Part shown: one piece after another, positions 91 to 63,096 of the stretch
Layout: every line of letters begins with the position of its first letter
Position numbering within the stretch: the first letter of the stretch is position 1
Assembly (NCBI RefSeq): GCF_046119375.1
Contig: NW_027362771.1
Location: forward strand, 529,604,001-529,668,000
Reading direction: 5' to 3'
DNA: 64,000 nt
Source of the DNA: Phyllobates terribilis
Lineage: Eukaryota
Translations under genes and position numbers: made by a program
Notes under the pieces: model-generated
What the model saw: only the letters and a program-made list of their open reading frames with translations
Databases searched by the model: none
Told to the model about the DNA's origin: nothing

Positions 91-512
91 TGTTATGTTC
101 TGCTACCAAAGCTAAGGAAAGAGAGGAGATCTGTCCCTACTATAGGACTCAGCTGAATCCCTACGATGTAACAGGGAACCTGATCCTGCGATCAGACCTG
201 CTAAAGTCCTAATCTAGTCTGTACGGAGACCTATAGATGTGGGGAGGGAATCCCTACAAGTACTAAGGACTGGGAGGAATATGGGACACCTCCTAACAGA
301 AATAGTAGCAGACAGACGAACAAACAAAATAGATAGAACATAGAGGTCCGTAGACCAAGCAAACTAACAGAGCTAGATACAGAGCACAGGCTAGCTAGAA
401 AGTAGATATACAATGAAGTCCAGCAAAGCCAGAAGGGCGGAGCAGGATTAAATAGGCCAACAAGGTCATGTGACCAGCAAAGGAAAAAAAACCTAACAGC
501 AAGGTTCTAACA
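91..512 (-). mobile_element. 5' LTR of a minus-strand chromovirus-type Gypsy element (body runs off the left edge), abutting the RT of a plus-strand Gypsy
   Basis: TGTTA...TAACA termini at 91 and 512; TATTTAA on the minus strand at 454-448; RT coding sequence starts right after 512. Confidence 0.7.
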
Positions 513-1549
513 CCTTCCAGCGGTTGATGGAATGCTGTGTGGGACACCGGAATTTCGAGACGGTCCTGTTATACCTGGACGATATCATTGTTTATTCCAA
601 AACCTACGAGGACCATCTGAAACACCTGGCAGAAGTGTTTGACGCCCTGGCAAGCTACGGCCTAAAGGTGAAACCCTCCAAGTGTCACCTGCTGAAACCA
701 AAGGTGCAGTACCTGGGACACGTGGTGAGTGCTGACGGAGTGGCTCCCGACCCCGATAAGATCACCGTGATTAAAGACTGGCCAAGACCCTCCAGCATAA
801 AGGAAGTGCGGCAGTTTCTCGGGTTGGTAGGCTACTACTGAAGATTCATTCCCGGTTTCACCAAAATGGCATCTCCTATGCAGGACCTCCTGATAGGTCA
901 ATCCAGGAAGGCCAAAAACCAGAAGCCGCCCTTCAGGTGGGAAAAGCTGGAAGAGGAGTCCTTCCGCCAGCTGAAGATGGCCCTCACGGGGGATGAAATC
1001 CTGGCGTACCCTGACTACAGCCAGCCCTTTATCCTCCACACGGACGCGAGCAACATCGGGCTAGGAGCCGTACTGTCCCAGATCCAGCAGGAGAAAGAAC
1101 GGGTAATCGCTTACGCCAGCCGAAAACTACGGCCCACGGAGAGGAACCCTGAGAATTATAGCTCATTCAAGCTAGAGTTCCTGGCAGTGGTGTGGGCAGT
1201 GACCGAACGTTTCAAGCATTACCTTGCCTCTTCCAAGTACACGGACAACAACCCATTGACACACCTGGACACTGCAAGGCTTGGTGCCCTGGAGCAGAGA
1301 TGGATGGCCCGCCTGTCCAACTATGAATTCACCATCAAATACCGGGCGGGACGCTCAAATGCCAACGCGGATGCCCTGTCCAGAATCCCAAACTTACCGG
1401 ACGTAGGGGAAGATCCAGAAGAACTGGAAGAAGTCGAGCTCCCTGCGTTCCACCGTCATGGAATTACCCTGTATTCCCACCGTGTAAGGGACAGGCGCTC
1501 TGCTACGTTCAATCCCTTACCACAGCTGGGCCGAGACACAAGACAGTGA
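513..1549 (+). pseudogene. pol: Gypsy reverse transcriptase/RNase H, disrupted
   Basis: YLDDIIVYS, LHTDASNIGLGAVL, YTDNNPL, NADALSR motifs; in-frame TGA at 839-841 (likely CGA decay); frameshift near 1520-1560. Confidence 0.9.
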
Positions 1550-1565
1550 TCCCGCAGTCCGTCTG

Positions 1566-3194
1566 GTGAAGGAAATGCTGACACAGGCTGATGCCCATCT
1601 TGACCCAGACGCTCCGGAAGAGACCAAGCAACTGTGGAAGGAGAAAAGTAAACTGTTTCTTTACAAGGAGAAGCTGTGCCGGAGAATGGTCAACTCTAGA
1701 ACACATGAGCTGACCTGGCAGGTAGTGGTCCCAAGACGAGATGCGGCTATGGTTCTGGAGGCATACCACGACGGAGCAGGACACTTTGGTTGGAAGAAGC
1801 TGGAATTCCTGTTGTATGGACGGTTCTACTGGGTAGGCATGAGAGGAGCCATCGAGAGGTGGTGTAGAGACTGTGGCCCGTGCAACCTAAGAAGGAAGGA
1901 CCGCGCCAGCCAGAAGACTCCCCTGCAGCCCATCATCACCAGACAGCCACTGGAACTGGTAGCCCTGGACCATGTGAAACTGGTTCCAAGCAAATCTGGG
2001 TACGTCTACGCCCTCACCATCGTAGATCACTACTCCCGGTTCCTGGTGGTGGTCCCTGTCAAGGACTTAACGGCTCAAACAGCAGCTAGAGCCTTTCAGC
2101 AGCACTTCTGCCATCCACACGGGTATCCGGAGCAGGTGTTGACGGACCAAGGACCAGCCTTCGAAGCGGAAGTCTTCCAAGAGTTCTGCAATCTGTATGG
2201 CTGCAGGAAGATAAGAACAACGCCCTATCACCCTCAGACCAACGGACTATGTGAGAAAATGAACCAGGTGGTGATAGACTTGCTAAAAACGTTGCCCCTG
2301 GAAGAACGCAGTCTCTGGCCTGAAAAACTGCCTGATCTGGTGGACTTATATAATCACATCCCTGTAGGTTCCACCAACTGTACCCCGGCTTACCTAATGA
2401 GAGCAAGACCTGGTAAGCTGCCTATTGACCTGGATATGGGAGTCCTGACACCTGAGGACACCTCGCCAGAGGCAGACTGGGATACAGAACGGCAGCAGCA
2501 GTATCGGAAAGTACAGGAGAGCATCGAGCAAAGTCTGTCTCAAGCAACAGGAAGGCAAGAGAAGACTTATAACCAGCATGCTCCCGCTGTTCCCCTGGTA
2601 CCTGGAGAGCAGGTCTTTAAGAGAAAGAGGCGGCTCCACAAGTTGGACGACCAGTGGGAGAAGGACCCGTACACAGTACTGCCCTCAAGCCATGATAATC
2701 CAAAAGTCTGCATAATCAGTAAGGATGGAGGAGAGACCACAGCCATTGTTTCCAGAGACCACCTGAAAAAGTGTCCCGAGCAGCTGCAAAGCCCTGATGA
2801 AGATCAAGAGAACTCTCAACCCGCAGAGGAAAGGGAAGAAATGATCAGTACCGTACTCGGAGACTTTCCCCGGTCCTGGACTCAAATCAACAACGCAATC
2901 GTGGTACCCGTCCTCACCTTTCTCCAGCCAGCCCCTCAAGGGCCTACAGAAGAACAGGTAGTGTCGGAAGAGCAGCCGGCCCAGGAGGCAGAAGAATCCA
3001 TACCAGCAGCCCAGGTGAATCAACCCTCTGCTAGTAGCGAGCCTGCCATGCCCCTAGTAAGCCAAAGAGTACGCAGAAAGCTGCCAGACCTACCCGCAAC
3101 ACCTCCTACACCCTGTAGTGCAGAACCAGATAGTGGGTTACGTAGGTCCACCAGGAGCACTAGAGGACAGATGCCCGCTCGCTGGAGAATCTAA
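1566..3194 (+). CDS. pol: Gypsy integrase, open 542-aa segment with low-complexity tail
   Basis: HHCC (HDGAGH...CRDCGPC); DDE in ALDHV, LTDQG, GLCEKMN; TTPYHPQTNG. Confidence 0.9.
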   Translation: MKEMLTQADAHLDPDAPEETKQLWKEKSKLFLYKEKLCRRMVNSRTHELTWQVVVPRRDAAMVLEAYHDGAGHFGWKKLEFLLYGRFYWVGMRGAIERWCRDCGPCNLRRKDRASQKTPLQPIITRQPLELVALDHVKLVPSKSGYVYALTIVDHYSRFLVVVPVKDLTAQTAARAFQQHFCHPHGYPEQVLTDQGPAFEAEVFQEFCNLYGCRKIRTTPYHPQTNGLCEKMNQVVIDLLKTLPLEERSLWPEKLPDLVDLYNHIPVGSTNCTPAYLMRARPGKLPIDLDMGVLTPEDTSPEADWDTERQQQYRKVQESIEQSLSQATGRQEKTYNQHAPAVPLVPGEQVFKRKRRLHKLDDQWEKDPYTVLPSSHDNPKVCIISKDGGETTAIVSRDHLKKCPEQLQSPDEDQENSQPAEEREEMISTVLGDFPRSWTQINNAIVVPVLTFLQPAPQGPTEEQVVSEEQPAQEAEESIPAAQVNQPSASSEPAMPLVSQRVRRKLPDLPATPPTPCSAEPDSGLRRSTRSTRGQMPARWRI

Positions 3195-3667
3195 ACTATA
3201 ATGTAAATTTACCTGTAAACTGTAAATGTTGAAAATGGTTTATGTTTTGTTGCCTGTGTATTAATTATGTTTCTCTAGTTACCCTGCAGGTTTATTTGGA
3301 CTGACAGGTTATGGACACTGAGTAACCGGAACTACATTGTAGATAGTTGCACCTTGGTGCCTCTTGCGAAGATGGCCGCGGAAGAGAAAAACCTGTCTGG
3401 CATGGCCTCCTGGTGGCCCAAAGTAGCTAGCCTCAGCTTTGCAGCCACGCCCAGGGCCAACATTTGGGGTTTGCTTTGAACAGGTCCCCTACTCTGTTCC
3501 AAGACTTCACCTTGTTGGGTGACATGGACACCCGGTTACGGACACGCCGTGACCTCTAAAGACTAAAGCTTCTTGTACATATGTTGTTGTATTATTGTTA
3601 TACCCTGTATTTGTGTTTTCTTAAAAATGTGTTTAGTCCCGGAGTACTAAAATTTACTAGGGGAGAA

Positions 3668-4101
3668 TGTGGCACCCCAGGGGTCTGGTTACCACAGTAA
3701 TAGAAATATTACGTCTGAGAGCAAGTGGGAGGTTTCCTGGTCAGGAGCCCTTAAGCATGCAACACCTCCTGCCCAGACCTGGGAGGGGAGGAATCTGCCC
3801 TATATAAACTGGGTCTGGGGTGGGTTTAGTCAGTCAGAGCCTGGAGTGAAGTTCCAGACACAGGGAGAGTTACAGCAGGAGCTCTGTAGGAGCAGGAGCT
3901 GAGTGCCAGGGACTGGAAGCAGATATATTGCTCGTCCTGGCTGAAGAGACGCGTGTACACTCGGCCCAGGGGGTGCGTCAGTACAACATTACATATTCTC
4001 ACCCTTCCGCTGGCCCGCCTGGGATAGAACAGCTGTGACTTTGGGGACTTCCGGGGCCAACTACCTCAACCCGTGGCCACCCGCTTCTGGTGGGCCCCCA
4101 C
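3668..4101 (+). repeat. 3' LTR of the 513-4101 element (end uncertain, 3980 or 4101)
   Basis: Follows the PPT; TGTGG...CCACA at 3668/4101; GGGGGTGCGTCA ending at 3980 also resembles related LTR ends. Confidence 0.6.
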
Positions 4102-5777
4102 AGAGAGAAGATAGTGGCAAGCTTTGGAAGCTAGCAGTCCATCGAGGTACAAGGCCAGGAGACCCTATCCAAGAGTTTCCATGGGGCAAGATGACCGGCT
4201 GGTCCCAATCTGGCTTCTCTGAATGTCTCCATGGATTCCAGGTGACCGTACGGTCCCACCTGGCAACCCCAAACATATCCATGGGGCCAGGTGACTTCAT
4301 CGTCCCAACGTGGTCTCCCCAAATGTATCCATGAGTTCTTTGCTGGTCACTGGAGCGGATCCGTATCTTTCCAGTCAGGGCCATATACACTTAGGCCGGA
4401 ATCATGTAGAATCCAAATTTGTGTCTCTTTGTATGGAGCCGCCATGCTATCCATCTACTGTCCTGAAGGATGTCTCTCATTCTCCTTGTAAAGTCTTTCT
4501 TGATTCTCTATTTCAAGTCTGAATGCTACAGAAGCATATCTCCTTTGTAAGTACACATCCACAGGTCAAGGGTTAGGAATGATATCATTCCACAGGGCTC
4601 AGGTCTCATTCTTTGCTCATTTAATCAATTTACGTAGTTGGTATAGGAGGGGGCACCTTAAATCAACATCTAGCTGGTTTTTAGTGCAATATGTAATTAG
4701 CATATTATCAAACATCATTTTGCACAGACCCAAGAGGAGACAACAATCAGGGTTATACAAATAACAAGTATGTTCTTCTTGACCAGCCACAGAAATACAC
4801 ATACATTTACAAGTCAACATAAACACAATAGTGTATTTCTCTTGGCTTAACAAATCTAATCTTCTGGCTAATTAAGATTATAAGCTATATCATCACACCC
4901 ACTATGTAGAGGAAGACTACTGTTTGGGCGCACAAAAGGGCTTGCAACTAAAGGAGCGCCATTTGACTTTTTGAATGTAAAATTTGCTGGAATAATTAGC
5001 GGACGCCATGTTGTGTTTGGAGAGCCCCTGACTGCCTAAACAGTGGAAACCCCCCATAAGTGACACCATTTTGGAAACTAGACCCCTCAGTGAACTTATC
5101 TAGATGTGTGGTGAGCACTTTGAACCCCCAGGTGCTTCACAGAAGTTTATAACATTGAGCCATGAAAATAGAAAAAAAAACAAATTTTTCCCGCAAGAAT
5201 GTTTTGGAGCACAAAATTTTGCATTTTCTCAAGGGTAACAGGAGAAAATGGACCCCAAAATTTTTTGTGCAATTTTCTCTATGCAGATACCTCATGTGCG
5301 GTCAAAAACTACTTTTGAGGCATAGTGCAAAGCTCAGAAGGGAAGAAGTGCCATATTGCAGTTCAGATTTTGCTGGACTGGTTTGAGGGTGCCATGTCAC
5401 ATTGGCAGAGCCCCTGAGGTGCCAGATCAGCCGAACCCCCCCCCATAAGTGACCCCATTTTTACCACGAAAATTTTGTTTTAGCCCCAGGTTTTACATTT
5501 TCACACTGGGAAAGTAGAAATACCCCATGTGTGGCTGTACAGTACTGCTTAGCCACACGGCGGGAATCGGAAGGGACATAGCACTTTTTGCCTCCTTGAG
5601 TGCAGATTTTCGTAGAATACTTTGCGTACTTCATATACAGAGCTCCTACGTGCTAGAAGAGCAGAATCCCCCTCAAGTGACCCCATTTTGGAAATTATAC
5701 CCCTTTCTGAATTTATCTACAGGTGTAGTGACGATTTTGACTCCATGGGTGTTTTCCAGAAATAAGCAGCAGTGGAT

Positions 5778-37273: not shown

Positions 37274-37404
37274 CATGGTTCCCGTTGAGCCCCACGGCCT
37301 TCGCTCTTTGAGAAGTTTTTCCAGCGAATACATGCATTAAAATAAAATAAATACATTTTTTTCCCCCTTTAGCTGAGTTCCAGGCGAATTACGCACCCGT
37401 CCAG

Positions 37405-39309
37405 ATGGATCTATCAGCCCTCGTTCCTGCGGATCCGCCACGTTACTATGGGGATCCAAGACAGTGTCGTGCATTTGTGGAGCAATGCATGCTACACTTT
37501 AAGGCCTACCCTCTCTATTTTCCTTCCGATTGGGCTAAAGTGGCCTTTATGATTGACTACCTAGCGGGTGATGCCTTGAAATGGGTCACCCCCCTATGGG
37601 AAGCATGGGATCCTGTCATCCTTGACCTGCAGGCCTTCCTGGTGGCCTTTCGTATGGTCTTCGAGGACCCTAACTCTGAAGCCCCTGCTGAAGCTTCACT
37701 TCCCAATATCCCGGAGCAGCCCCGACGGGTAATGTGTGTGGGTAGCGCAATAGTCCTCCAGCCCAATGAGACTACTGCCCACCCAGAATCCTCACAAGGT
37801 GACTACGCTTTCCGGAATACTTCTCTCAACCTCAAGAGGCAGTCCAGACGTGCTAGACTTAGAGGCAAGCCGTCACGCCAGGGTCTGTCCTCCCTGAGAC
37901 CTCCTGACCCCAACCTTGAAGTCCCTACTGAAGCTTCATCTCCCTGTATCCCGGAGAAACCCCAATGGGTAATGTGCGTGGGTAGTGCACCAGTTCTCCT
38001 GGCCGAAGAGACTTCTGCCCATCCAGACTCCACACAGGAGAACTTCCTGCACCCGGCATCAGATGCTTCTTTCTCTTTAACCGGTGTGCATGTCCAAGGA
38101 TGCTCCAAAGCTGTGGTTACCTCAGAGTCTGTGCACCTCTACTACCTGGCGGAGGATCCCCTGTTGCCTCCTGAACCCTCCGGGATACCACTCGATGACA
38201 AATGGAGAGAGACTTCTCTACACCCGGTACTCAATACTTTGTCCGCTTCGTCCTGTGAGCCTGACAATGGGTACCCCAAAGTGGTAGTTACCTCCGAGTC
38301 TCTACACCCCTCCGACCAGGCGGAGGATCTCCAGTTGTCTCCTGAACCCTTCGGGGTGCTACCTGGTAGCGAAAGGACAGAGACTCTCCTATACTCTGTA
38401 CCTGATACCTCGCTCGCTTCGTCCAGTGAGTCCAACCTAGTGTACTCCGAAGCAGAGGTTACTCCTGAGTCTCTACACCCTTCCGACCAGGCGGAGGACC
38501 TCCAGTTGTGTTCAGAATCCTTCGGGGTGCCACCTGGTGGTGAATGGACAGAGACTTTCCTATATCCTGGATCTGATACCTCGCTTGCTTCGTCCAGTGA
38601 GTCCGACCTAGTGTACTCTGAAGCAGAGGTTACCCGTGAGTCTCTACACCCCTCTGACCAGGCGGAGGACCGCCAGCTGTCTCCAGAACCCTTCGGGGTG
38701 CCACCTGGTGGTGAATGGACAGAGACTTTCCTATACTCGGTACCCGATACCTCGCCTGCTTCCTCCAGTGAGTCCGACCTAGTGTACTCTGAAGCAGTTG
38801 TTTTCTCTGAGCCTCTGCACTCTTCTGACCCGGCGGAGGACCTCCAGTTGTTTCCTGAATCCTCCGGGATACCACCAGATAACAAAGAGACAGTGACTTT
38901 TCCTCATTATGTACCTGATAACCCGTCTATTTCTTCCTGTGAGCTTGACAAGATGTACCTCGAAGCAGAGATTACCCTTAAGTCTCTGTCCCCCTCCAAC
39001 CCAGTGAACGACTGGTCCTCGAATTCCCTGCGGAAGATTCTGGCAGGCCTGAAGAAGAGGGGGCGTAAGGGGGGAGGTACTGTAACATACCTGGCGGCGT
39101 CCTTGCATGGTGGTCCATCTCCCACTGTGCAAGAGGGCGCACTTGATCTCCTGTCCAGAATGTCTCTCTGGCTTCCCTCCATGCTGTCTGTTTGTGTCTG
39201 TTTCTGCTGCTTAAGGGCGGCGCCCGATCACTTCCTGCCTTTTGTACCTGCTGTGGGTCACACCCCTTGTGCGTCCTCAGCCTATTGCTGTCTGTCACTT
39301 GGTATATAG
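37405..39309 (+). CDS. 634-aa Ty3 capsid-like protein fused to acidic Ser/Pro/Glu tandem repeats, running into the 3' LTR
   Basis: PPRYYGDPRQCRAFVEQCMLHF...KVAFMIDYLAGDALKW matches the gag at 18421-19155; five 57-aa repeats; no stops. Confidence 0.8.
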   Translation: MDLSALVPADPPRYYGDPRQCRAFVEQCMLHFKAYPLYFPSDWAKVAFMIDYLAGDALKWVTPLWEAWDPVILDLQAFLVAFRMVFEDPNSEAPAEASLPNIPEQPRRVMCVGSAIVLQPNETTAHPESSQGDYAFRNTSLNLKRQSRRARLRGKPSRQGLSSLRPPDPNLEVPTEASSPCIPEKPQWVMCVGSAPVLLAEETSAHPDSTQENFLHPASDASFSLTGVHVQGCSKAVVTSESVHLYYLAEDPLLPPEPSGIPLDDKWRETSLHPVLNTLSASSCEPDNGYPKVVVTSESLHPSDQAEDLQLSPEPFGVLPGSERTETLLYSVPDTSLASSSESNLVYSEAEVTPESLHPSDQAEDLQLCSESFGVPPGGEWTETFLYPGSDTSLASSSESDLVYSEAEVTRESLHPSDQAEDRQLSPEPFGVPPGGEWTETFLYSVPDTSPASSSESDLVYSEAVVFSEPLHSSDPAEDLQLFPESSGIPPDNKETVTFPHYVPDNPSISSCELDKMYLEAEITLKSLSPSNPVNDWSSNSLRKILAGLKKRGRKGGGTVTYLAASLHGGPSPTVQEGALDLLSRMSLWLPSMLSVCVCFCCLRAAPDHFLPFVPAVGHTPCASSAYCCLSLGI

Positions 39310-39411: not shown

Positions 39412-39778
39412 ATCAGTTCCCGTGTCTGAACTGAGTCCTGTATGTCTCCTGCTTTGCGGTATCAGCTCCCGTGTCTGAACTGTGTCCTGTATGTCTCCTG
39501 CTTTGCGGTATCAGCTCCCGTGTCTGAACTGAGTCCTGTATGTCTCCTGCTTTGCGGTATCAGCTCCCGTGTCTGAACTGAGTCCTGTATGTCTCCTGCT
39601 TTGCGGTATCAGCTCCCGTGTCTGAACTGTGTCCTGTATGTCTCCTGCTTTGCGGTATCAGCTCCCGTGTCTGAACTGAGTCCTGTATGTCTCCTGCTTT
39701 GCGGTATCAGCTCCCGTGTCTGAACTGAGTCCTGTATGTCTCCTGCTTTGCGGTATCAGCTCCCGTGTCTGAACTGAC
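39412..39778. repeat. 49-bp tandem repeat in the 3' LTR (8 anchors)
   Basis: GTGTCTGAAC from 39422 to 39765 at 49-bp spacing. Confidence 0.95.
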
Positions 39779-40865
39779 TCCTTTCTGTGTTCTCTTGTCT
39801 GTCCTGTCTGAACACGCTCCTAGCCTGTTCCTCTCTGGGGGCCGTATTCCCAGACCCGCTCCTGTATCCCTCTGCAGTGTCGGTCTCCTCCGTACACTCA
39901 GTTCCAGTCTGAACTCTCTCCTGTCCTTTACCTGTTTTGCCTCTATGTCCGTTCCCTTCCTTTTTCTGCAGAGTCTGAACTCGTACCTAACTCCTGCTTG
40001 TTGTCTCTGCAAGTACTGTGTGAGTATCTGGCTCTGTCTTTCCCTTCCTGTCTGTTCCGTGTGAACAGAGCCCTGTCCTCCCTGCTCAGCCTTGTCTGCA
40101 CTCTAGCTGTGCTTGCCTGTAACCCTCTGCCTGTATTGTTCCTGAGTCCCGGTGTGTACTGGGTCCTATCCCGCCTGTGTTCCTACCTGCTAGTGCCTCT
40201 CTGTCTGCACTCTAGCTGTGCTTGCCTTTACCCCCCTGCCTGCATACCCGCCTGCCTGCATACCAGTCGTGCCTGCCTATACCCACCAGTCTGTGTGCCA
40301 GCCTACCAGCCTGTTCCTGTATTCCCCTGTGTGGGTCAACAGCCGTGTCCGGGGTCTGTCCTGGAGTAGCACCTGGTCCCTCTGCTCGGTTCCTCCTTGG
40401 TGCACTGGCGTCGTATGCCGTCGTGCGACCCTGGTCGGATCGGGTGAATACTTAGTCACGCCCCTCCAGGCATTCACTCTCCGGCACGGTCCAGTGGAAT
40501 CACTACCAATCACACGCACACGCCGCTTAGCCCGGGCGTGTGCATAACACTAGGGCCTTCGATCCTTGGCGTCGGGAGGATGTGTTCCATTCCAAGGTCT
40601 GACTGGGTCCTGGCTTCCACTAGGTTAACCCAGTGTGCCATCAGTGAGATGTACCGTCCCTGCCCACAAGCACTTGTCCACGTGTCCCTGGTTAGGTGGA
40701 CTTTCCCTATAACTGCATTGTTGAGGGAACGGCTAATGTTTTCGGACACGTGCTTGTGTAATGCGGGGACGGCACACTGGGAGAAATAGTGGCGACTGGG
40801 GACCGAGTACTGAGGAACGGCCGCCGCCATCAGGTTGCGGAATGCATCCGTCTCCATGAGCCTTA

Positions 40866-43661: not shown

Positions 43662-44904
43662 TGACGAGCCCCCTGGGCCGTGGGGTACTCGGTGCCAGGC
43701 CGGTCGTTGCTAAGGGAGATGTCACAGTGACGGTGACCCAGTCCGTGACCCAGGGCGGTCATTCAAAAGGCGATTTTTATAGGGGATTTATGTACAAAGT
43801 TCGTGACCCCACCTGTGGTATGCAGCTAAAGGGAGCGGCTGCTGCAGAGCAAGTCCTCTGGAGCTGATGTTAGTGCAGCAAAGCTGGTGTGGCTCTCCAC
43901 AGGTAGAGCTTAGCTCCAGGGTAGTGTAGATGTAATAGGTGATGCTGGGCATTGTAGTGCAGGGGTGATGGCGCAGATAATAATCACAGAGACAGTGGGG
44001 TGCAGTCTTCCGAGTTTACTCACAGTTGTTAAGTTCCTCAGGTTACAGGTTCCGGACTACAGCCTCCCACGTCGTGCTGCGTTCACCAGGCAGGGGTTCA
44101 GCAATCCCTCAGGTAATTCAAGAGTGCCTGACAGGACCCCGTTCTATGTGCCTTCCTCAGTCGTCTTCCTGCGCTGGCTCTCAGCCTCCTGCCCTGCGCC
44201 TCACAATCAGTGTCCCAATCCGGTAGCCTCGGGTCTTGTCGGGCGACCTGCAGTCCCCTGGACCCTCTGTGGCCACCTTTTCGGCGATATAATTGTGGTT
44301 GTGGCCACTGCACCTTGCAAGTACTGCAGCCTCCGGTTCATAGCTGAGCCTTGTAGTTCTCCACTAGTTTAGGGGCCGGTCCCCTCTGCGGCTCGATCCC
44401 TCCACCGCCTGGCAGATTCGGGCGTACGGGTGGCCTCCAGCACTTCCCGTACCCCTGGGATCCCTTCTGTTCCGGGAGACTTTCTCCTGCTCCCTCACCT
44501 CTCTCAGTCCTAGGCCTCTCCTCAGGCCTGCTCCGGAGCAGAGCTCGTGCAGAGCCCCTGCTCCCCTCACTTTCCTCCTCCAACTGAACACACTGACTGG
44601 ACTGAGCTCACTCTCCAAGATGGTTCCCCTTTTTATACAGCTTCCTTTCATGCTCCCCTAATCTACTTCCTCCACCCACACCCACTACATGGTTCCCCCT
44701 TACTTGGTTCCCCTCCACTCCAGCCAGGGATCAGGGACTGTGCTCTCCCCTAGGAGCAATCTCGCCCTGCCCTACTGAAGTGGACTTTTTGGATGCAGGT
44801 GTTAGGGTCCCGGGCAGCACTCTATCCTTACCTGAGAGTGGGATACCACACCTCTGTGTGAGATGCAGTACCTCTGTGGCGACTGAACCCTCAGGGGCGC
44901 CACA
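43662..44904 (-). mobile_element. Solo LTR of the CSD-associated family
   Basis: TGTGGCGCCCC...GGGGGCTCGTCA on the minus strand; no clean TSD (AAGA vs GATA). Confidence 0.85.
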
Positions 44905-47098
44905 GATATGTGTCTCTAATATAGTTTGGTACACCTACACTAACTAGAAACAAGCAAATCTCTCCCTAGCTCAGTAGCACCTCTCCCTACACTGTCTGAT
45001 TCCAGAGTGACTGTGACGAGCATGGTGGCACCCGATCTTATATACACCTGCTCTCGCTGTGCGGCCAGCCAATCACTGTAATGCCACAACCAACATTGCT
45101 GCTGCATTACAGTGCGTGGCAGACGATCCCTGCATGTTCATTGGCTCTGTAAAGAGCGCCAAACATGCAGGGAGTGGACCCGAGCTCCTGCCGAGCAACC
45201 CCGGAAATACTCGGCAAGCGCCGAGCATCTCGAGCAGTGAGATCCTCGAGCAAGCACCGAGCAGTAGCGAGCATGTTCGCTCATCACTACTGGTGACGCG
45301 CCCCCTGGGGCCGTGGGGTACTCGATTGCCAAGCCGGTCCTTTTTGGGGTAGTCACGATGGCAGTGACCCGGTCCGTGGCCCAGGGCGGTCAATAATTAA
45401 AGTCAGTCAATTGGGGGAATAAAGAAAAGGGGAATAAAGTGTTTGGGGACAATGTTCGTGGCGCCACCCGTGGTATGCGGCAATATGTGGCCACCGCTGC
45501 TATTCAGATCCACTGGGGCTGTTGGTGACGCAGCAAAGATGGTTCAGCTCTCCATGGGCAGAGCTAAGCCCCAGGGCAGTATATAGGGCTTGATGAGGTA
45601 GATGTTGTTGGTGTATCGCAAGGCAGGTGGCGTAGTAATTAATTCAAGGACACAGCGGGGTGCAGTCTTCAAGTATTTACTCACAGTTATCAAGATGCTC
45701 CAGGTTACAACTGCCAGATTATAACCGCCCACGTCGTCCCGTGTCCTCCGAGGAAGTGATCCGGCCAACTCTCAGATAACTTGGGTGCACTTGAACGGGA
45801 CCCCTTTCTGTGTACCTCTCCAGGTCGTCTCTCTCTCTGCGCTGGCTCTCGCCCTCCTGCCCTGCGCCTCACACACAGTGTACCGAGCCAGTGGCCGCGG
45901 GCCTTGTTGGGCGATGTCCTGTCTGTCCCCTTTGTCCTGTATGGCCACCTTTTCAGCGATTGTGTGTGGACTGTGGCTACGGCATGTGAAGATACCGCAA
46001 CCTCCGGTTTGCTAGCTGAGCCTTAAAGTACTCCACTAGTCTGGGGCCGGTCCCCTCCTGCGGCCTTGATCCCTCCACGATCAGTGTGAACTCGGGCGCA
46101 CAGGTGGCATCCCGCACTCGCCGTGCCCCTATCATTCCTTCTGCTTCTGGAGCCCTCCTCACTGCTCCGGTCTTCTCTCCTCACTCTCCTCCTGGGCCTC
46201 TCTGGCTGGGCCCTACTCCTCACTCACTGAACTCCTCTGGAACTCCTAACTCCTTCTAGATGTTTCTACCCTTGCTTTTATACTGTTTCTTCAGTGCTCC
46301 CCTAAACTACTTCCTCCACCCACCTCTTCTACTTAGTTCCACCTCCAAACAGGGACCGGGTCTGTGCTCTCCCTCAGGAGTTATCTGGACCCTCCCTCAG
46401 GAATGGTGTAGTGTTGAATGTAAGCGGTTGGGTCCCGGGTAGTGCTCCCTCCTTACCTGAGAGTGGGGTACCACACCTCTGGCTGAGATGCAGTACTTCT
46501 GTGGCAACTGGACCCGCAGGGGCGGCACATTTCCCCCCCGTTAAACACAACACAGAGTAGAAAAACAAGAATTTAAGACATCCAAAATTTTCAGAATGCA
46601 TTCACAGGTAAAGCAGTAAATAGATAACTTTTTCTTCCCTTTATGGGAGGCACTTTTTCTTAAAAGTTACATATAAAACAATATAAGATCACTTTAAATA
46701 ACATTTTATCAAACAAGTCCAACAGGCTGCAGTGAGATCCTTTTCAGGGTGTCCTTCTCACTGGTGTAAGTGCAATGTGGGGGACCCGTCCACAAAAAAC
46801 CCCAACGTAGGCCCTGGGCGTGGCTGCAGGGTATAGCTGATCCACTCGTTGGATCACGTGTTCGGCCTCACCAAACTGTTTTTTGTTCAGTGGTCTATAA
46901 AACCAATAAGAAGCACCTTAAGAAGTGCTAACTTTTTACAATAAAAGTTTTTGGGTTAATCACTGTCCTTAACCATAATGTCCTTTTTCTTAACCAGGTC
47001 CACACAAAACAAACAAAAACTTTTCTTTAAACATACACGGATTATACCAGTACCCTTCCAGGTAACTATATACAGTTTTCTGATCATTTTAACTCAGT

Positions 47099-47257
47099 TC
47101 AGTGCTGGTGCTCCCTCTGGGGAAACATTTGTCCACCACTGGAAGGCCCTGCTGGGTCATCAGCCTCTGATGGCAGGGGCATGTTCTCCTCCACCACCAC
47201 CCTACGCACATGTAGGGTGTACCACCCCCCTTCTCCGTGGTGACGGGTGTAGGTGAC
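47099..47257 (-). pseudogene. C-terminal remnant of a CSD ORF
   Basis: VTYTRHHGEGGWYTLHVRRV, 14/20 identical to VTYTRHKGAKGPYTLHVHRL in 59723-60643. Confidence 0.8.
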
Positions 47258-47566
47258 CCTACTCGGTACTCGGTAGCCGGGCCGGTCCTTTTTGGGGTAG
47301 TCACGATGGCAGTGACCTGGTCCATGGCCCAGGGTGGTCAATAATTAAAGTCAGTCAATAGGGGGAATAAAGAAAAGGGGAATAAAGTGTTTGGGGATAA
47401 TGTTCGCGACGCCACCCGTGGTATGCGGCTATATGTGGCCGCCGCTGCTGTTCAGATACACTAGGGCTGCTGGTGACGCAGCAAAGATGGTTCAGCTCTC
47501 CACGGGCCGAGCTAAGCCCCAGGGCAGTATATAGGGCTTGATGAGGTAGTTGTTGTTGGTGTAGCG

Positions 47567-48839
47567 TGACGCGCCCCCTGGGCCGTGGGGTACTCGATAG
47601 CCGAGCCGGTCGGTGCTGGGGATGTCACGGTGGCAGTGACCTGGTCCATGACCCAGGGTGGTCAATTAAAGGGAAAGTAAAAGGGAATAAAGTTTTTAGG
47701 ATAATAATGATCGTGACGCCACCTGTGGTATGCGGCTATTTGGGGCCGCCGCTGCGGTGCAGATCCGCTGGAGCTGATGGTGACGCAGCAGAGTTGGTTC
47801 AGCTCTCCACAGGTAGAGCTAAGCTCCAGGGCAGGAAATGATAAATTGAATGAGGTACATGTTGTTGGTGCTGTGTAATGCAGGGCTGGTGATGGCGCAG
47901 CAATTATTCAATGACACAGTGGGGTGCAGTCTTCAGGTTTTACTCACGGTTGTTCAATTCTCCAGGTTACAATGGCCAGTGTGTAACCTCCCACGTCGTC
48001 CTGTGTCCTCCAGGGTAGGGATCCAGCAATCTCTCAGGTACCTCAGGAGCACTTAAACGGGACCCCGTTCTATGTACCTTTCCCGGTCGTCTCACTGCGC
48101 TGGCTCTCGCCCTCCTGCCCTGCGCTTCACAATCAGTGTCCCAGGCCAGTGGCCTCGGGCCTTGTCAGGAAACGTGCAGTCCCCTGGACCCTATGCGGCC
48201 ACCTTTTCGGCGATGTAATTGTGGATGTTGGCTGCAGCACCTTGAAAATGCAGCAGCCTGCGGTTGTCTAGCTGAGCCTGGTTGTTCTCCACTAGTTAGG
48301 GGGCGGTCCCCTTCTGCGGCCTGATCCCTCCACGTCAGCATGAATTCGGGCGCACGGGTGGCCTCTGCACTCACCATGCCCCTGGGATCCCCTCTGTTTC
48401 TCCTGGATCCCTCCTCACTTCTCCTCTCTCCTCTCTTCATTCTTTCTCCTGGGCCTCTCTGGCTGGGCCCTGCTCCTTTCTCCACTCCTCCTGAGCAGAA
48501 CTCCTCCTGAGCTCCTCCTCCCAGCTCTCTCTCCTCTGTACTGTCTCCTCACAACTGACTGCTTCTAGATGGTTCCCCCTCTTCTTATACTCTTCCTGTC
48601 TGTGCTCCCCTGAACTACTTCCTCCACCCACCTCCTCTACCTAGTTCCACCCTCCAGCTAGGGACCAGGGACTGTGCTGTCCCTTAGGAGTAATCTCGCC
48701 CTTCCCTACTGAAGTGGAGTGTATTGGATGTGGGGGTGTGGGTCCCGGGTAGTGCTCCCTATTTACCTGAGAGTGGGGTGCCACACCTCTGGGTGAGATA
48801 CAGTACCTTTGTGTCTACTGAACCCGCAGGGGTGCCACA
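47567..48839 (-). mobile_element. Solo LTR of the same family inserted in a related LTR
   Basis: TGTGGCACCCC...GCGCGTCA; TSD AGCG at 47563-47566 and 48840-48843; host LTR text resumes. Confidence 0.9.
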
Positions 48840-50163
48840 AGCGCAAGGCAGGTGGCGTAGTAATTAATTCAAGGACACAGCGGGGTGCAGTCTTCAAGTA
48901 TTTACTCACAGTTATCAAGATGCTCCAGGTTACAACTGCCAGATTATAACCACCCACGTCTTCCTGTGTCCTCCGGGGAAGTGATCCAGCCAACTCTCAG
49001 ATAACTTGGGTGCACTTGAACGGGACCCCTTTCTGTGTACCTCTCCAGGTCGTCTCTCTCTCTGCGCTGGCTCTCGCCCTCCTGCCCTGCACCTCACACA
49101 CAGTGTCCCGAGCCAGTGTCCGCAGGCCTTGTTGGGTGACGTCCTGTCTGTCCCCTTTGTCCTATATGGCCACCTTTTCAGCGATTGTGTGTGGACTGTG
49201 GCTACGGCACGTGAAGATACCGCAGCCTCCGGTTTGCTAGCTGAGCCTTAAAGTACTCCACTAGTCTGGGGCCGATCCCCTCCTGCGGCCTTGATCCCTT
49301 CTGTCTCTGGAGCCCTCTTCACTGCTCCGGTCTTCTCTCCTCACTCTCCTCCTGGGCCTCTCTGACTGGGCCCGACTCCTCACTCACTGAACTCCTCTGG
49401 AACTCCTAACTCCTTCTAGATGTTTCTACCCTTGCTTTTACACTGTTCCTTCAGTGCTCCCCTAAACTACTTCCTCCACCCACCTCCTCTACTTAGTTCC
49501 ACCTCCAAACAGGGACCGGCTCTGTGCTCTCCCTCAGGAGCTATCTGGACCCTCCCTCAGGAATGGTGTAGTGTTGGATGTGAGTGGTTGGGTCCCGGGT
49601 AGTGCTTCCTCCTTACCTGAGAGTGGGGTACCACACCTCTGGCTGAGACGCAATACCTCTGCGGCAACTGGACCCGGAGGGGCGCCACACTCGTCACTTA
49701 TTTCTGATAAAAAAATATCAACCATATCCATCAGTACATTTTTGCACGATCCCCTCAGCCTGGATCCCCTTCCGTTCTGCAACTCAAGTTCAATTTCCAC
49801 CTTCGAGCCTGTCACAGAAGAAGTTTCCAGGCTCCTTGCTTCTTCTTGGCCTACAACCTGCACCAGTGACTCTATTTCTTCACATGTCCTACAGCCTCTC
49901 TCTCCAGTTTTAACTACCTACCTAATTAAAATATTTAATCTCGCTCTCTCTTCCGGTATCTTTCCCTCTTCATTCAAACACGCCGTCATAATCCCTTTAC
50001 TTAAAAAACCACCCTCGTTCAGAAATGTACTGCAAACTACAGACCTGTCTCTAATCTACCCTTCATTTCTAAACTCTTGGAACATTTGGTCCACTCACGT
50101 CTAATCCGCTATTTTTCAGATAACTCTCTTCTTGACCCTCTACAATCTGGTTTCCGCTCTTTA

Positions 50164-55761: not shown

Positions 55762-56284
55762 AACTGAACGATCACTTTCTGTAGGCCCGGTACAGACCGC
55801 ACGTCCTTTGTTTTTGCGGCAAGCTGTGCCACCCGTTCGCCCGTCACCACAGACAGGTCAGCACGTCTCTATTTCACTGAGGACAGGGCAGCACGTCTCT
55901 CTCTCTTTGTTGGCAGGTCCGACTGTTACTCCCCAACTGCCGGTCTGCTCTCCACAACCAACTGTCTCTTTCGCGTGAGCCCAGACACCTGACTTCCTCT
56001 CTTCCGTCCCTCTCCTCTGTCCCCCAGCACTGTCCAGGAAGTCCCCCGTGCACTCTTAATCCCATCCCCTGGCACACTGGGCAGGACCCTGGCAGTTCCG
56101 GCACCGGAGCTCCGCACCTGGCCCTAGGCAAGTCTTCCTTCTTACACTCCCGCTCCCTTTGAGCTCGCCATTCCACGGGCGAGAGTTTTTTCACCAGGTG
56201 CTCACACTCTCTGACCTCTTGGATGATACGTTGCCAGATGAACTGATCCTGATTGTAGCGGATAGGCGGCACACCAGCCGTGGA

Positions 56285-57375
56285 TCATTCGGACCGGCGT
56301 AATGCAGTTGGAGCGCAGGGTACTTGAGAGTCGCTGGGGTTCCCAACTTCGCCCGGCCCAGCCTGACGGAGTGGTGGGCCCTCCTCTCTCGTGTGGAAAG
56401 CTGTGGACGATGTGGGACTGGGGATCGCAGCCACTATCGTCTCTTCCTCCTCATCATCGTAGACGGGCGCACTGGGTGTGGGATCTCCCATCCTTGTGCT
56501 GAGTTCTTCCTTCTTTTCCTCATCACTAGACAAACAGGGCCGTAACATGCTTCGATGAACAATTCTAGTTGGAGCCGCTTCTTCCCCCTCAGGCTGAACC
56601 TCATACACCAGTCCTTCAGGACTAACTCTCGGTTTCACTCGATGCGGGGTCGACTCCCACCGTCTACTCAGCTGCCCCGGGGTCTCTTGTCCCGTACCAA
56701 CATCCGTTCTCCCGACTTAAAGGCTGTCCCCCGAAGAGGTGGCGTTTCATGGTGCTTATGTTCCTTAAACTTCTGCTGCACCAACCTCCGAAGAGTCTGC
56801 AACCGGTGCCAATGCTCCCGGACCCAGGTAGATGGGCACGTACGGGGCAAGTCCTCCACAGGATCTAGTTCGAGCTCGGTTATCTCCCTACCCTTTTGTC
56901 CGAACAGCAGGGTGTAGGGGGGTGAACCCTGTGGCACTATGTAGCCATTTATTATAGACCCACACCAGCTCGGCCACAAACTCCGGCCAGCGTACCTTCC
57001 GATCTTCTTCCAAGGTTCGAAGCATCTGGATCAAAGTTCTGTTGAAGCGTTCCATTCCCTTGCGGATGGTAAGGGGTGGTCCTAGACTTCTCGATCTTGT
57101 ATAGCCGGTGCAGCTCCTCCATCACCCGTCCTTGGAAACAGGCTCCTTGATCGGAGTGAATTTTCTTCGGACAGCCATAGACCCTGATGAAGTCCTGCCA
57201 GATTGCCTGGGCAGCAGATTCAGCTGTCTGATCCCTGGTCGGAGTTACCACAGCGAATTTCGTAAAGTGGTCGATCATGACCAGGCAATGTCCATACCCG
57301 AGATGCGCCGGCCCGATGGTCAGGTAGTCGATCATCGACACCTCTAAGGGCGCAGCCGTCACAATGGTCTGGGCT
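56285..57375 (-). pseudogene. pol: Gypsy integrase core and tail, frameshifted
   Basis: SMIDYLTIG, DHFTKFAV, IHSDQGACF, TTPYHPQGNG. Confidence 0.85.
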
Positions 57376-58939
57376 CGTCCTTTACTTCGCCCGGGGGTCT
57401 CGGGTCAACTGTTCCAGCTCTCAATGATTGAGCCACTCGAATATTGTACCACTCTTCTCGCATTTCTTGGATCTCCCGCCGCATCTCTCGGGCCCATTCA
57501 GGTTCGGCCGTGGGCGACGGGGGGCACTGCATTGCCCTGGACCATCCCTGCCAGGGTCACTACCCCCATCTCCTGTTCCCTCACGTGGGCCTCTGCCCCT
57601 GCCTCCAGAAATGTCATACGCGGGTTGGTGTGCAAGCGCTCTCGCAAGGCATGTCTCTGTAGCGCCCCGAGGGTTCGGCCGCTACAGGGGTATTGCACGT
57701 CTGCCAGAGGTCTGATATTCCACTCCCGGGTAAGGATGGAGTATGGACCAGGGCTTAGGTAGCTGCATGCAGCACACACACACCATTTCCAGGGGACAGC
57801 TCAACGGTGCTCCCATTAGACAGTAATGCAGGCACGACAGACCATGTCCCTGGCTGGAGTGGGGAGGGGGGAAGAACACCCAGTGATGTAGGAGCAGGAG
57901 GGGACGGTACCTGAGCGTAGGTAGGAGCTCATTGGTTGCTGGTCACCTGGGCTCATGTTCTAGAGGGAAGTATAAAAGGTGGGCACCATCTTAGATCAGG
58001 GGTCAGTTCAGTCAGAGAGAAATACAGTGGAGAGGTGAGAGGGTGCAGAGGCTCTGTAGGAGCTCTGCTCAGAGGCAGGCCTAGAGAAAAGGCCGGGGCC
58101 TGAGAGGAGAAGGAACAGAGGAGAAGAGAAGGAACAAGAAAGGGAAAGAAGTGGCCAAGAAACAGAAGGGCTCAGGAACAAGAAGGTGGAAGGGACCCTA
58201 AGGACCAACGTGAATCGGGTGACGGGTCAGGCAAGAAGAGGGTACCGGATCCCGATTTGGTGGAAGCTAATAATCTTCAGCCAAGAACCGGAGGTCGCGA
58301 CCATCACTTGGTGCGACCCCTTGCTAAACCTTGCTAGGAAGGCATACCATATAGGGTAGCGGGAAACGGGGCCCACGTTTGCCCGCATAGACCCGCGGGA
58401 GCTGGACAAAAGCTTGGTCACTGGCGGGGCATGAGCCGAAGTAAGGATAGGAAGGAGCTCTGAACCATACTCCTGAAGTGCCTGGGGGTTGACTGAGTCC
58501 CTCACCTGGTGGACACCGCACGGCTTGGGTGGTCACTGCTGGCGCTGAAGTGACCCGGAGCATATGAACCGTGAGTAAAAGACATTGGACTGCAGTACGT
58601 TGTCTGTGTACTCCTTGCTCCTCCAGCACTAACGGCACTGGGACTCTCTACACCATCACCCCCCCACCATCCTCTACACTGCCCTGGGGCTGCACTCTTC
58701 CCGTGGGGAGTAACACTACCTCAGCTGCAAACACCATCAGCCTCAGCGGTCTGCACTGCAGCGGCGGTTAGCCCTGACCGCAATCCACGGGTGGCGTAGT
58801 CGGACATTACCTACTGCACATCATAGACTACCACTGGTCTGACCACCCTGAGCCATGGGACCGGGTCGCCACTACTACTCCCAGCATTGCCCTGAAGACC
58901 GGTCCCGAGTGCCCCACGGCCCAGGGGGCGAGTCAGCTT

Positions 58940-58957
58940 TGGCGTAGTCGGCAGGAT
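58940..58957 (+). promoter_or_regulatory. tRNA-Ser primer binding site
   Basis: TGGCGTAGTCGGCAGGAT, complement of the tRNA-Ser(AGA/TGA) 3' end, 4 nt after the LTR. Confidence 0.9.
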
Positions 58958-59311
58958 TGTGACCAACCCGCCACAAACGGGTATTGCGCGCCTGAAAAGA
59001 GACTGTTTTATCGAATTGACTGTGTTGAAAGATGGCGCCCGCCCCAGCAGAACGGACGCCATAATGTGCGTGCCAAAAGACAACAGGAGGCCACCTCCCA
59101 TCGTGGGCCAGGTCCCAGAATGGCGCCAAAGAAGGAGCCCACCCCTGCCAGCCATGAATGCGGGTGTGGAGATGTCCATCAGCGTGGGGGGCTGCCCCTG
59201 AAAGTGATTGTCACCAAGTTGCCCCAGGACCACCCCCAATGGGGACGGGAAAGGAAGAAAACTGTGGGGTAGGGCGCGGTCTGGATCAGTCTAGACAGAC
59301 CGCACCCGGGA

Positions 59312-59587
59312 ATGGAGGAAGCATTCAGCAGCACCAGTACCTTGACCTGGGGCCTGCTGCAGGCTGAACCGCCATGCAGCCTGGCGGAGATCCTGGCGCA
59401 GCTCCCCAGAGATCCGGAGCGTGCGCAAGCTGCACTGGAGGACCTGGATCGGAGGATGGTCCGGGCGCAGCGGGATGCGCTTGCCGGGTGGAGAGAAGAA
59501 CTGGCCGGCAGGCTGGAACCCGCCAGAGGCAGGCATCACCCGCACCCCGAAGTACGCCTGCCTCTGAGGACGGTGAAGGAGGAGTGA
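59312..59587 (+). CDS. 91-aa helical ORF, possibly the frameshifted N-terminus of the CSD protein
   Basis: ATG-initiated, amphipathic and charged (LAEILAQL...WREELAGRL); overlaps downstream Pro/Ala-rich frames. Confidence 0.4.
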   Translation: MEEAFSSTSTLTWGLLQAEPPCSLAEILAQLPRDPERAQAALEDLDRRMVRAQRDALAGWREELAGRLEPARGRHHPHPEVRLPLRTVKEE

Positions 59588-59722
59588 AGGCCGGAGACGA
59601 CGCCGCGGAGGGAGCCACGAGGACCAAGGCAGGTAAAGGGGACGTTACCACCCCAGGCCCAGCAGCTGCAAGCCCGCCCCAGCCTCCCGTCGCAGAGCCC
59701 GAAGCCCCACTCACCGTACCTG

Positions 59723-60643
59723 TTGCCGCGCCGTCACTACTGCCGGCTAGGCCTCAAGCGGCAGGAGCGCGGTGAAGAAGGAGGCGTCACCAGCCGGGTC
59801 GCAAGGCCTAGTGAACCCGGGCGCCGTTACCCCACCAGCGCCCCCCTCCTGGACCGGGCCGCCACCGGAAGACCCCCGGCCTGGTCGCAAGGCCGAGTGC
59901 CCCCGGGCGCTGCTCCCAAACCGGGGCCCTCCGCTATACCACCGCTGGGCGCAGACCTGTTTGCCCAGCACACCGGTCCGGATGGACTGCCGTTGGTGTG
60001 GCCGGCCGAGCTGGTCAGCGGTCGACCATGGAAGACCCAGCCCCCGCGCGAGCCCCTGATACCTGCTCCGGAGCCCGTAGAAGTCACCTTGCCCCCACTA
60101 GAGGACGCCCAATTTGAGTGGGACCCCACTGGCGAAAACCTAATGGGGTTCACTCAGGAGACCCGGGCAGATGCAGCCCGCCGTCTGGAGTCCTGTCGTC
60201 AGCAGCTGGTGACCTTTGAGCGGGAACGGCGACAGAGGCGCGTTAGGGAGGAGCGGCTTCAGGCCCAGAGTGCCGAGCAGAAACGCAAGGCCCGTCAAGA
60301 CCCCCGAGCCGCCCGCGGTCCCCGAGCCACCGGGACCGTGATAAAGTTCCAGATGGAGAATGGCTGGGGCTTTATAAGGGACCCGGAAACCGCCGGTGAC
60401 GTCTTTGTGACTCGCAGGGACGTCGAAAGCCATCTGCCAGAGGGACACCGTGGACGTGACCTATACCCTGGTGATGTGGTCACCTATACCCGGCACAAGG
60501 GCGCCAAAGGACCATACACCCTCCATGTCCACCGGCTTACTGAGGAGGAACTGCAGCACTACGGCTACGAGGAGAGCCAAGAGGACCTGGACGGGTCTGA
60601 AGACTATCCTGAGGAAGGTGCGCAAGGAGGACACCGCTACTGA
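59723..60643 (+). CDS. Cold-shock-domain protein: Pro-rich region, Arg/Glu helix, CSD (60326-60538), acidic tail
   Basis: TGTVIKF...NGWGFI (RNP1-like), DVFVT (RNP2-like), LYPGDVVTY...KGPYTLHV; the true start is uncertain (TTG call). Confidence 0.85.
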   Translation: MPRRHYCRLGLKRQERGEEGGVTSRVARPSEPGRRYPTSAPLLDRAATGRPPAWSQGRVPPGAAPKPGPSAIPPLGADLFAQHTGPDGLPLVWPAELVSGRPWKTQPPREPLIPAPEPVEVTLPPLEDAQFEWDPTGENLMGFTQETRADAARRLESCRQQLVTFERERRQRRVREERLQAQSAEQKRKARQDPRAARGPRATGTVIKFQMENGWGFIRDPETAGDVFVTRRDVESHLPEGHRGRDLYPGDVVTYTRHKGAKGPYTLHVHRLTEEELQHYGYEESQEDLDGSEDYPEEGAQGGHRY

Positions 60644-63078
60644 AAAGTGGCAGTGCGCAAGTGTAAATAGTTAGCCGTCAGGGTAAAGGAACTGTTATGA
60701 GACTGTTACCTGTGTGAAAGTTTCCCCTTATCCCTTATCTGGCTGGGGACTGAGAACAGCCATCCCCCTTCCCCTACCTGGCTGAGGACTGAGAGCAGCC
60801 ATTCCCCCTTTCCAACCGGCCGAGGACTGGGAACGGCCAATTCCCTGTAAATAGTTGCGCTTCCTAAAGCACCCACTACTGGTTTTATAACAAGACTGTA
60901 ACGTCTACCTCGGGACAGAGAGTCCCTCACGTTTAAAAGTTTACTGAAGTTTTGCACTTAAAAGAAGATTGAACACCTGGTCACAAGTTGCCCGGAGGCC
61001 AGAGTTCAAGAATGTGTTTTGAAAATGTTTTTCTTGCAAATGTTTTATGTAGAAAAAGTTTTATAGGCTGCTAAATAATAATGTGAAAGTTTTCTATAAT
61101 GTTTATATGACAAAAGAGTTCCGGAGGCATTAGCAAAGTGTTTTATAATAGTGTAACAAGTGAGGAAAGTGTTTCCCATAAAGGGAATTGAACTGTCGTC
61201 CATTTTCTAATGTGAAAAGTTTGAAAAAGTTTTGCATGTCCTGTACTTAATTGTCTTTGCTCTTTTCCAGCCCGAGGACGTGCTGTGGTTTACCAGGGGG
61301 GAATGTAGCGCCCCGAGGGTTCAGCCGCTACAGGGGTATTGCACCTCTGCCAGAGGTGTGATATTCCACTCCCGGGTAAGGATGGAGAATGGACCAGGGC
61401 TCAGGTAGCTGCATGCAGCACACACACCCCATTTCCGGGGGACAGCTCAACGGTGCTCCCATTAGACAGTAATGCAGGCACGACAGACCATGTCCCTGGC
61501 TGGAGTGGGGAGGGGGGAAGAACACGCAGTGATGTAGGAGCAGGAGGGGACGGTTCCTGAGCGTAGGTAGGAGCTCATTGGTTGCTGGTCACCTGGGCTC
61601 ATGTTCTAGAGGGAAGTATAAAAGGTGGGCACCATCTTAGATCAGGGGTCAGTTCACTCAGAGAGAAATACAGTGGAGAGGTGAGAGGGAGCAGAGGCTT
61701 TGCAGGAGCTCTGCTCAGAGGCAGGCCTAGAGAAAAGGCCGGGGCCTGAGAGGAGAAGGAACAGAGGAGAAGAGAAGGAACAAGAAAGGGAAAGAAGTGG
61801 CCAAGAAACAGAAGGGCTCAGGAACAAGAAGGTGGAAGGGACCCTAAGGACCAACGTGAATCGGGTGACGGGTCAGGCAAGAAGAGGGTACCGGATCCCG
61901 ATTTGGTGGAAGCTAATAATCTTCAGCCAAGAACCGGAGGTCGCGACCATCACTTGGTGCGACCCCTTGCTAAACCTTGCTAGGAAGGCATACCATATAG
62001 GGTAGCGGGAAACGGGGCCCACGTTTGCCCGCATAGACCCGCGGGAGCTGGACAAAAGCTTGGTCACTGGCGGGGCATGAGCCGAAGGAAGGATAGGAAG
62101 GAGCTCTGAACCATACTCCTGAAGTGCCTGGGGGTTGACCGAGTCCCTCACCTGGTGGACACCGCACAGCTTGGGTGGTCACTGCTGGCGCTGAAGTGAC
62201 TCGGAGCATATGAACCGTGAGTAAAAGACATTGGACTACAGTACGTTGTCTGTGTACTCCTTGCTCCTCCAGCACTAACGGCACTGGGACTCTCTACACC
62301 ATCACCCCCCCACCATCCTCTACACTGCCCAGGGGCTGCACTCTTCCCGTGGGGAGTAACACTACCTCAGCTGCAAACACCATCAGCCTCAGCGGTCTGC
62401 ACTGCAGCGGCGGTTCGCCCTGACTGCAATCCACGGGTGGCGTAGTCGGACATTACCTACAGCACATCATAGACTACCACTGGTCTGACCACCCTGAGCC
62501 ACGGGACCGGGTCGCCACTACTACTCCCAGCATTGCCCTGAAGACCGGTCCCGAGTGCCCCACGGCCCAGGGGGCGAGTCAGCTTAGCTGCGCATCTCTG
62601 AGGCCGAACTGGTCCCTAAGTACTAGGTCCGGGGGCCCCACTCCCACATCTTCTAGGTTCGTTTTCCTAGTGATGTAAGTGTACACACTCTGTAGGGCGT
62701 TGACATTTTGGGTCACAGTCTCCCCCTCCCTTTGTACCTGTTGGAACAGTCGCATCATTAACTTTAGTAGGGTCCCCATGCATTTCTTCTAGGATCCGTA
62801 CCACCTTTTCCACCGTATTTCGGTCAGTGGGGGAACGAAACATTACTGACTGTCGAGCTTCTCCTTCTAAAGCCAGCAAAGCTATCTCTTCTTGCATATC
62901 GGGGGTCATTGGGTGCATCCGTAACATGCTCTTAACCCTTTCTACCCAATCCCACAGCATCATGTTGTCTCCGGTAAACTTTGGGAGATTATTCAACATG
63001 GCGCCCAGGGGTAGGCTAGCTGTAGGGGCTCTCGCGTTGGCCTGGTCGGCCATGCCTGCAACTGCGTCTGGGGACGAC

Positions 63079-63096
63079 ATCCTGCCGACTACGCCA
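63079..63096 (-). promoter_or_regulatory. tRNA-Ser primer binding site
   Basis: TGGCGTAGTCGGCAGGAT on the minus strand, 2 nt after the LTR end. Confidence 0.9.

Follow-up and report, generated by a model that had tools for sequence, protein, structure and literature searches.

The window analysed here is a 64-kb stretch of repeat-dense Phyllobates terribilis DNA with Gypsy, L1/CR1-type and hAT-like pieces. It contains two LTR elements on opposite strands, designated A and B, both of which retain sequence for an RNA-binding type of domain, the cold-shock domain (CSD) (Table 1). Element A (49689-45294, minus) was inserted as a two-LTR element and has an internal deletion. Of the criteria for an LTR retroelement, A shows the LTR pair (95% alike, with 56 differences in 1150 nt, 4.9%), a polypurine tract (PPT) by the 3' LTR and an outer target duplication (three of 4 nt matching); the primer-binding site (PBS) after its 5' LTR is deleted. 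The LTR pair of element B has 23 differences in 1282 nt; compared with 56/1150, this makes A the older insertion.

Table 1. Features of elements A and B and of related sequences in the window
Feature	Positions	Strand	Details
Pol-bearing Gypsy fragment	497..4400	+	similar PPT, LTR 5' end and 3' UTR motif; no CSD frame; candidate helper lineage
3' LTR of A	45294..46529	-	1236 nt, TGT...TCA
PPT of A	46530..46539	-	adjoins 3' LTR
3' UTR of A	46540..47098	-	holds motifs 46777-46828 and 46635-46680
Stop codon TGA of A remnant	47099..47101	-	read 47101-47099
Remnant ORF 3' end of A	47102..47260	-	last 21 CSD residues and 32-residue tail
Deletion junction	47260..47273	.	tandem 7-mer: LTR end, 3-4-nt filler (47261-47264), first CSD base
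5' LTR of A	47265..49689	-	lacks last ~23 nt; 60-nt internal deletion; split by solo LTR
Solo LTR, related family	47567..48839	-	76% to A's LTR; inserted in A's 5' LTR; exact 4-nt target duplication
Element B	57658..62585	+	LTRs 57658-58939 and 61304-62585; PBS 58940; one broken ORF; PPT 61295-61303
Complete CSD of B	60329..60541	+	Pfam PF00313 33.5 bits (cut-off 27); Foldseek E 7e-7 to CspA

The PBS of B is presumably of the tRNA-Ser type. The ORF of B fills the space from PBS to UTR and is broken: a different frame (59494-59754) holds the part matching residues 14-100 of the related protein P0001, and a stop codon at 59585 interrupts the CSD frame. The identity to P0001 is 53% over 319 residues. 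No target-site duplication was seen around B (57650-57660, 62578-62595), both of its LTR copies end with four extra bases preceding the primer site, and the gag frame of its host Gypsy element appears to join cleanly across it; its insertion was possibly blunt and integrase-independent. At the start of its 3' UTR (60737-60840), a motif of roughly 35 nt occurs three times in near-tandem arrangement.

Elements A and B have common ends (TGT...TCA and the PPT), and their 3' UTRs have one 50-nt motif in common (46635-46680 in A). Out of about 1240 nt, the LTR matches comprise 80 nt at 75%, 127 nt at 71% and 31 nt at 90%, the common patches spanning 30-165 nt at 71-90% identity. Under the 80-80-80 rule, members of the same family have at least 80% identity over 80% of the LTR or internal region. 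Because their LTRs match in patches only, A and B are sister families and not one family. Four solo LTRs of the same clan were also seen (30585-31766, 43662-44904, the one inside A's 5' LTR, and about 11400-12486); the first three are 70-82% alike, exact 4-nt target duplications accompany two of them, and three LTR insertions crowd within 43.6-49.7 kb.

The CSD remnant and the deletion junction

The remnant of A consists of 53 open codons, followed by TGA, and represents the final two strands of a CSD plus the tail. The first-pass annotation described it as a minus-strand CSD C-terminus with 14/20 identity to the other copy, and this is confirmed: remnant codons 2-21 are identical to element B (60479-60538, plus) at 14 of 20 positions (tblastn within the 64-kb window, E 2.6e-6), and the CSD-derived part extends one codon beyond this block, to 47260. 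As a control, we used 100 trinucleotide shuffles, the best match in each being 7-10/20; the next best match in the real window is 8/20. Since the shuffles reach at most 10/20, a chance origin of the match is ruled out. Pfam gave no match for the remnant alone, a fragment too short to score. Compared with P0151, a Phyllobates protein with a whole CSD, the remnant is identical at 36 of 41 positions, i.e., 19/21 in the CSD end and 17/20 in the tail.

The order reported at first pass, CSD end, tail, stop, 3' UTR, PPT and LTR, is indeed the same in A and B, with tails of 32 and 34 aa and 3' UTRs of about 560 and 650 nt, respectively. The tail had been called different, which holds for the comparison with element B (the tails do not align, pN 0.79) but not for that with the P0151 tail. 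Thus, the tail is variable between subfamilies and conserved within a subfamily. Among the listed contig differences, five fall inside the remnant frame, all in the tail; three are synonymous and two nonsynonymous, which is uninformative.

The TACTCGG tandem noticed earlier lies exactly at 47260-47273, and there are only 18 exact 7-mer tandems in the 64-kb window. To read the junction, we used the intact LTR ends at 45294-45330 and 31728-31766 as references. The 5' LTR of A stops about 23 nt before the end seen in those LTRs; then follow 3-4 bases that belong to neither parent and equal the LTR bases immediately before them, and then the CSD codons. The TACTCGG repeat is therefore a repair scar, in which a 3-4-nt filler copied from the preceding LTR bases produced the tandem. 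A target-site duplication was rejected as its explanation, because the tandem is internal to the element and the LTR supplies half of its sequence. A deletion with a short templated filler is consistent with alternative end joining (PMC9303309), and we infer an end-joining enzyme at this junction: about 1.5 kb, a loss gauged by the dimensions of element B, would have been deleted by error-prone end joining, with a few bases of the LTR copied in where the ends were joined.

The losses in element A comprise the end of its 5' LTR, its primer-binding site and the larger part of the ORF. The deletion most likely came after insertion, since the primer site is gone and there is no in-frame ATG upstream of the remnant, and such a form cannot have moved; for want of the primer site, the deleted form was likewise rejected as a mobile miniature element. 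This copy is dead and the remnant inert. One contig tracks the remnant to exactly 47260 and continues with 19 other letters, as an undeleted relative would, and among the contigs listed none bridges the junction. Another scar of microhomology type was seen in the 5' LTR of A, where the 60-nt deletion has a 6-nt overlap (49294-49299).

Relatives of the CSD frame and the evidence for constraint

A profile search of 8000 candidates gave 20 matches (199-2000 aa), of which nine are frog proteins, all dendrobatoid: four from Phyllobates terribilis, three from Ranitomeya and two from Anomaloglossus baeobatrachus (three genera). The other 11 are unrelated multi-CSD proteins. There were 250 representatives with E up to 0.001, and among the 150 listed, five carry frog-type motifs. 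That no other frogs were found may be due simply to the masking of repeats ahead of annotation, and the Phyllobates relatives could be same-species paralogues of the window copies. A short-protein search matched one of 4229 candidates, a non-frog sequence; a search for related loci with the CSD alignment matched none of 111 metagenome candidates, none of 24 viral contigs and one of 108 prokaryote candidates, a weak bacterial Csp. PF00313 matched eight of the nine frog proteins, three of them above the cut-off, and no Gag family was found in the nine by Pfam. The gene models of P0151, P0152, P0154 and P0158 appear to join pieces of frog-type CSD to R3HCC1, a Harbinger-type transposase, a MIF4G protein and a UVS.2-like astacin; these fusions are annotation artefacts or exonised elements.

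The intact type of ORF encodes a short helix, a long disordered proline-rich linker, a long helix, the CSD and an acidic tail. The whole-protein model of P0001 shows a short helix, then about 250 residues of low confidence, a helix of 45 residues and the CSD; it was built from four sequences with pLDDT 54, so that a missed fold is possible. Neither capsid nor protease nor polymerase was found in the ORF, and the capsid search by Atlas and by the P0001 model (a shallow alignment) gave helices, disorder and the CSD only. Atlas feature searches yielded at best leads scoring below 0.9. The model of the CSD of element B combines a long helix with five strands (pLDDT 82), and its structural matches include CspA and YBX.

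Like YBX1/2 and bacterial CspA, the frog CSD has the five-strand fold and keeps the G-aromatic-G-F-I and F-V motifs; the aromatic core is partly kept, and the identity to both Y-box proteins and CspA is about 30%. The loop after RNP2 is of Y-box-like length (one-residue gap). At the matching columns of the alignment, the Y-box Trp and the RNP2 His are replaced, and the frog CSDs conserve a frog-specific loop and an aromatic last strand; together, these features suggest that the specificity may be altered. As to the donor, Y-box proteins score first with profile A1 (40 vs 35 bits) and tie with Csp with profile A3 (24 vs 25), and Foldseek ranks CspA first, with Y-box behind.

Mean identity is 55% for the CSD (42-79%, 36 pairs), compared to 27% for the helix region, 20% for the N-terminal part and 19% for the tail. 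It should be noted that this comparison includes nine sequences, with P0158 left out and chimeric parts trimmed, and that retrieval of the set with a CSD query is a bias toward CSD conservation. In the tree, P0151 is the partner of A (88/86) and P0001 that of B (80/67), neither pairing reaching starred support, and the ten frog rows are grouped against two non-frog rows (100/99); the tree has no Y-box row, as there is no YBX among the 162 stored proteins, and P0158 was left out.

Between A and B, 20 CSD codons gave pN 0.22 and pS 0.68, i.e., a dN/dS of about 0.14 (Fisher p 9e-4), with dS near saturation. The identity at the first, second and third codon positions is 15/20, 16/20 and 8/20, respectively. 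These values are indicative of the constraint proposed in the first-pass annotation, and the CSD is the best conserved part of the protein; the remnant itself being dead, it was its ancestors that were constrained. The suggested contrast of dN/dS in CSD versus tail is borne out between subfamilies, where the tails are unalignable, but not within a subfamily. Residual similarity after a single capture and neutral drift is a very improbable reading: the codon sample is small and the relatives were ascertained by a CSD query, but third codon positions are the most diverged, and the CSD of A and B aligns whereas their LTRs and UTRs barely do.

Contigs matching 46531-47566 at 80% identity or more numbered 3702-4948 in three DNA runs from two studies. 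The summed depth over the remnant is about 1000-4450, with a depth of 7-28 for most listed contigs, and LTR bins are mostly far higher. This depth shows many diverged copies, though it is not a copy number. Two contigs that are 84-87% identical (13-16% diverged) link UTR, tail and CSD end. A run guessed to be RNA has little depth on the remnant, which has no bearing on expression. An LTR context was seen for both CSD copies in the window, and both internal regions of this LTR type there hold the CSD; these counts cover the window only, with the nine database proteins outside it. Together with the nine poison-frog proteins and the many diverged contigs, this shows that the CSD is of long standing and conserved in a group of LTR elements, and not a single accident. 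The earlier claim of a stable trait is supported in part, but not as a trait of one family. The remnant of A, inert as it is, has its value as independent proof of a second subfamily.

Helper elements, known systems and competing explanations

No gag or pol (PR, RT, RNase H, IN) was found in the internal regions of A and B; the clan therefore needs a helper. Several cis signals are shared with Gypsy elements in the window. The PBS of B is identical to that of a gag-bearing Gypsy element at 63096. The PPT type and the LTR 5' end of A resemble those of the pol-bearing fragment at 497-4400, and the A motif at 46777-46828 matches 3440-3492 in this fragment over 53 nt at 83%. No helper with a matching whole LTR lies within the window. 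The 53-nt motif has very high contig depth and is a candidate packaging signal; the folding of its two copies agrees only in part.

As a rule, non-autonomous LTR elements retain Gag or no protein at all. Among known systems, a PF00313 CSD inside a vertebrate LTR retroelement is described in birds, where 46 ERVs carry one by repeated capture (PMC12287698). The bird elements are retroviruses, ERV-A/B and ERV-G, recognised by their RT, whereas the frog clan has Gypsy-type ends and no gag or pol, its CSD is the sole folded domain of its sole ORF, and this CSD forms a strongly diverged lineage of its own. Zebrafish Bhikhari (PMC12067270) and Xenopus 1A11/Xretpos (PMC4585706) are like the frog clan in having a single ORF bounded by LTRs, no pol or env, and many solo LTRs; the N-terminal coiled coil of the Bhikhari protein Bik-1 is a further likeness (PMC12067270). 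However, Bik-1 has a capsid domain and the 1A11 ORF is Gag-like (PMC12067270, PMC4585706), whereas in the frog clan no capsid was found and the nucleic-acid-binding part is the CSD. In the literature searched (Repbase, Dfam, supplements and subscription journals lie outside this search), we found no description of an LTR clan in frogs that encodes a CSD, and the main text of two poison-frog genome papers has no mention of a CSD or cold shock.

We consider it probable (roughly 0.65) that element A is a dead copy of a non-autonomous Ty3/Gypsy-type clan, whose own RNA-binding protein was kept by selection and aids its own transcript. To be copied, the clan would rely on autonomous Gypsy elements whose ends match its own and which supply enzymes and capsids. 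The CSD protein would bind single-stranded RNA, favouring the transcript of the element, which may be protected, stored, or loaded into helper particles through the helices. A bolder version, which we put forward tentatively, describes the clan as a capsid-less parasite across poison frogs of two families, with a captured Y-box-like cis adaptor as its sole protein. The CSD would grip the element RNA, while the helices oligomerise or dock on helper Gag, so that oocytes could store the RNA and autonomous Gypsy particles could package it. In these genomes, Gypsy elements reportedly amount to about 1 Gb and are expressed in ova (PMC6278860). If true, a host-type RNA-binding domain under purifying selection across many subfamilies would be a new way to parasitise helpers, parallel to CSD capture in bird retroviruses, and the question of why retroelements repeatedly capture CSDs becomes testable in these genomes.

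If the ORF of a non-autonomous element is under purifying selection, this would imply that the protein favours its own RNA, that the ORF is also present in autonomous elements, or that it serves the host. The second of these, with the CSD ORF as an accessory gene of an autonomous Gypsy element in which selection acted before A and B lost gag-pol, seems unlikely to us. Selection on the protein is easier to explain in an autonomous parent, A and B have PBS, PPT, LTR 5' end and 3' UTR motif in common with gag- or pol-bearing Gypsy elements in the window, and bird ERVs have CSDs beside normal genes (PMC12287698). Conversely, the span of B's ORF from PBS to UTR leaves no trace of gag or pol, tblastn of the nine relatives matched the CSD in A and B only, not the gag-pol elements of the window, and, as weak evidence, none of the 20 profile matches of 199-2000 aa is fused to gag or pol.

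Still more doubtful is a host gene family, domesticated or expanded, with decaying copies carried by LTR elements and constraint due to host function. The annotation gives several relatives as unbroken proteins of 380-550 aa, and Gag-only elements serve host development in zebrafish (PMC12067270), but the two subfamilies each reside in their own LTR family, the contig depth is high, and four relatives are fused in gene models to R3HCC1, astacin, MIF4G and Harbinger transposase, as scattered mobile copies would be.

Other Gypsy-like sequences were seen in the window. In the host Gypsy of B (56000-57650 and 62586-63150, minus), integrase follows gag almost immediately, and no RT was seen between the two. 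A 652-codon frame at 37351-39309 has a Gag-like start followed by repeats of about 50 residues, and lies inside duplicated LTR-like blocks (36419-37259 and 39707-40547).
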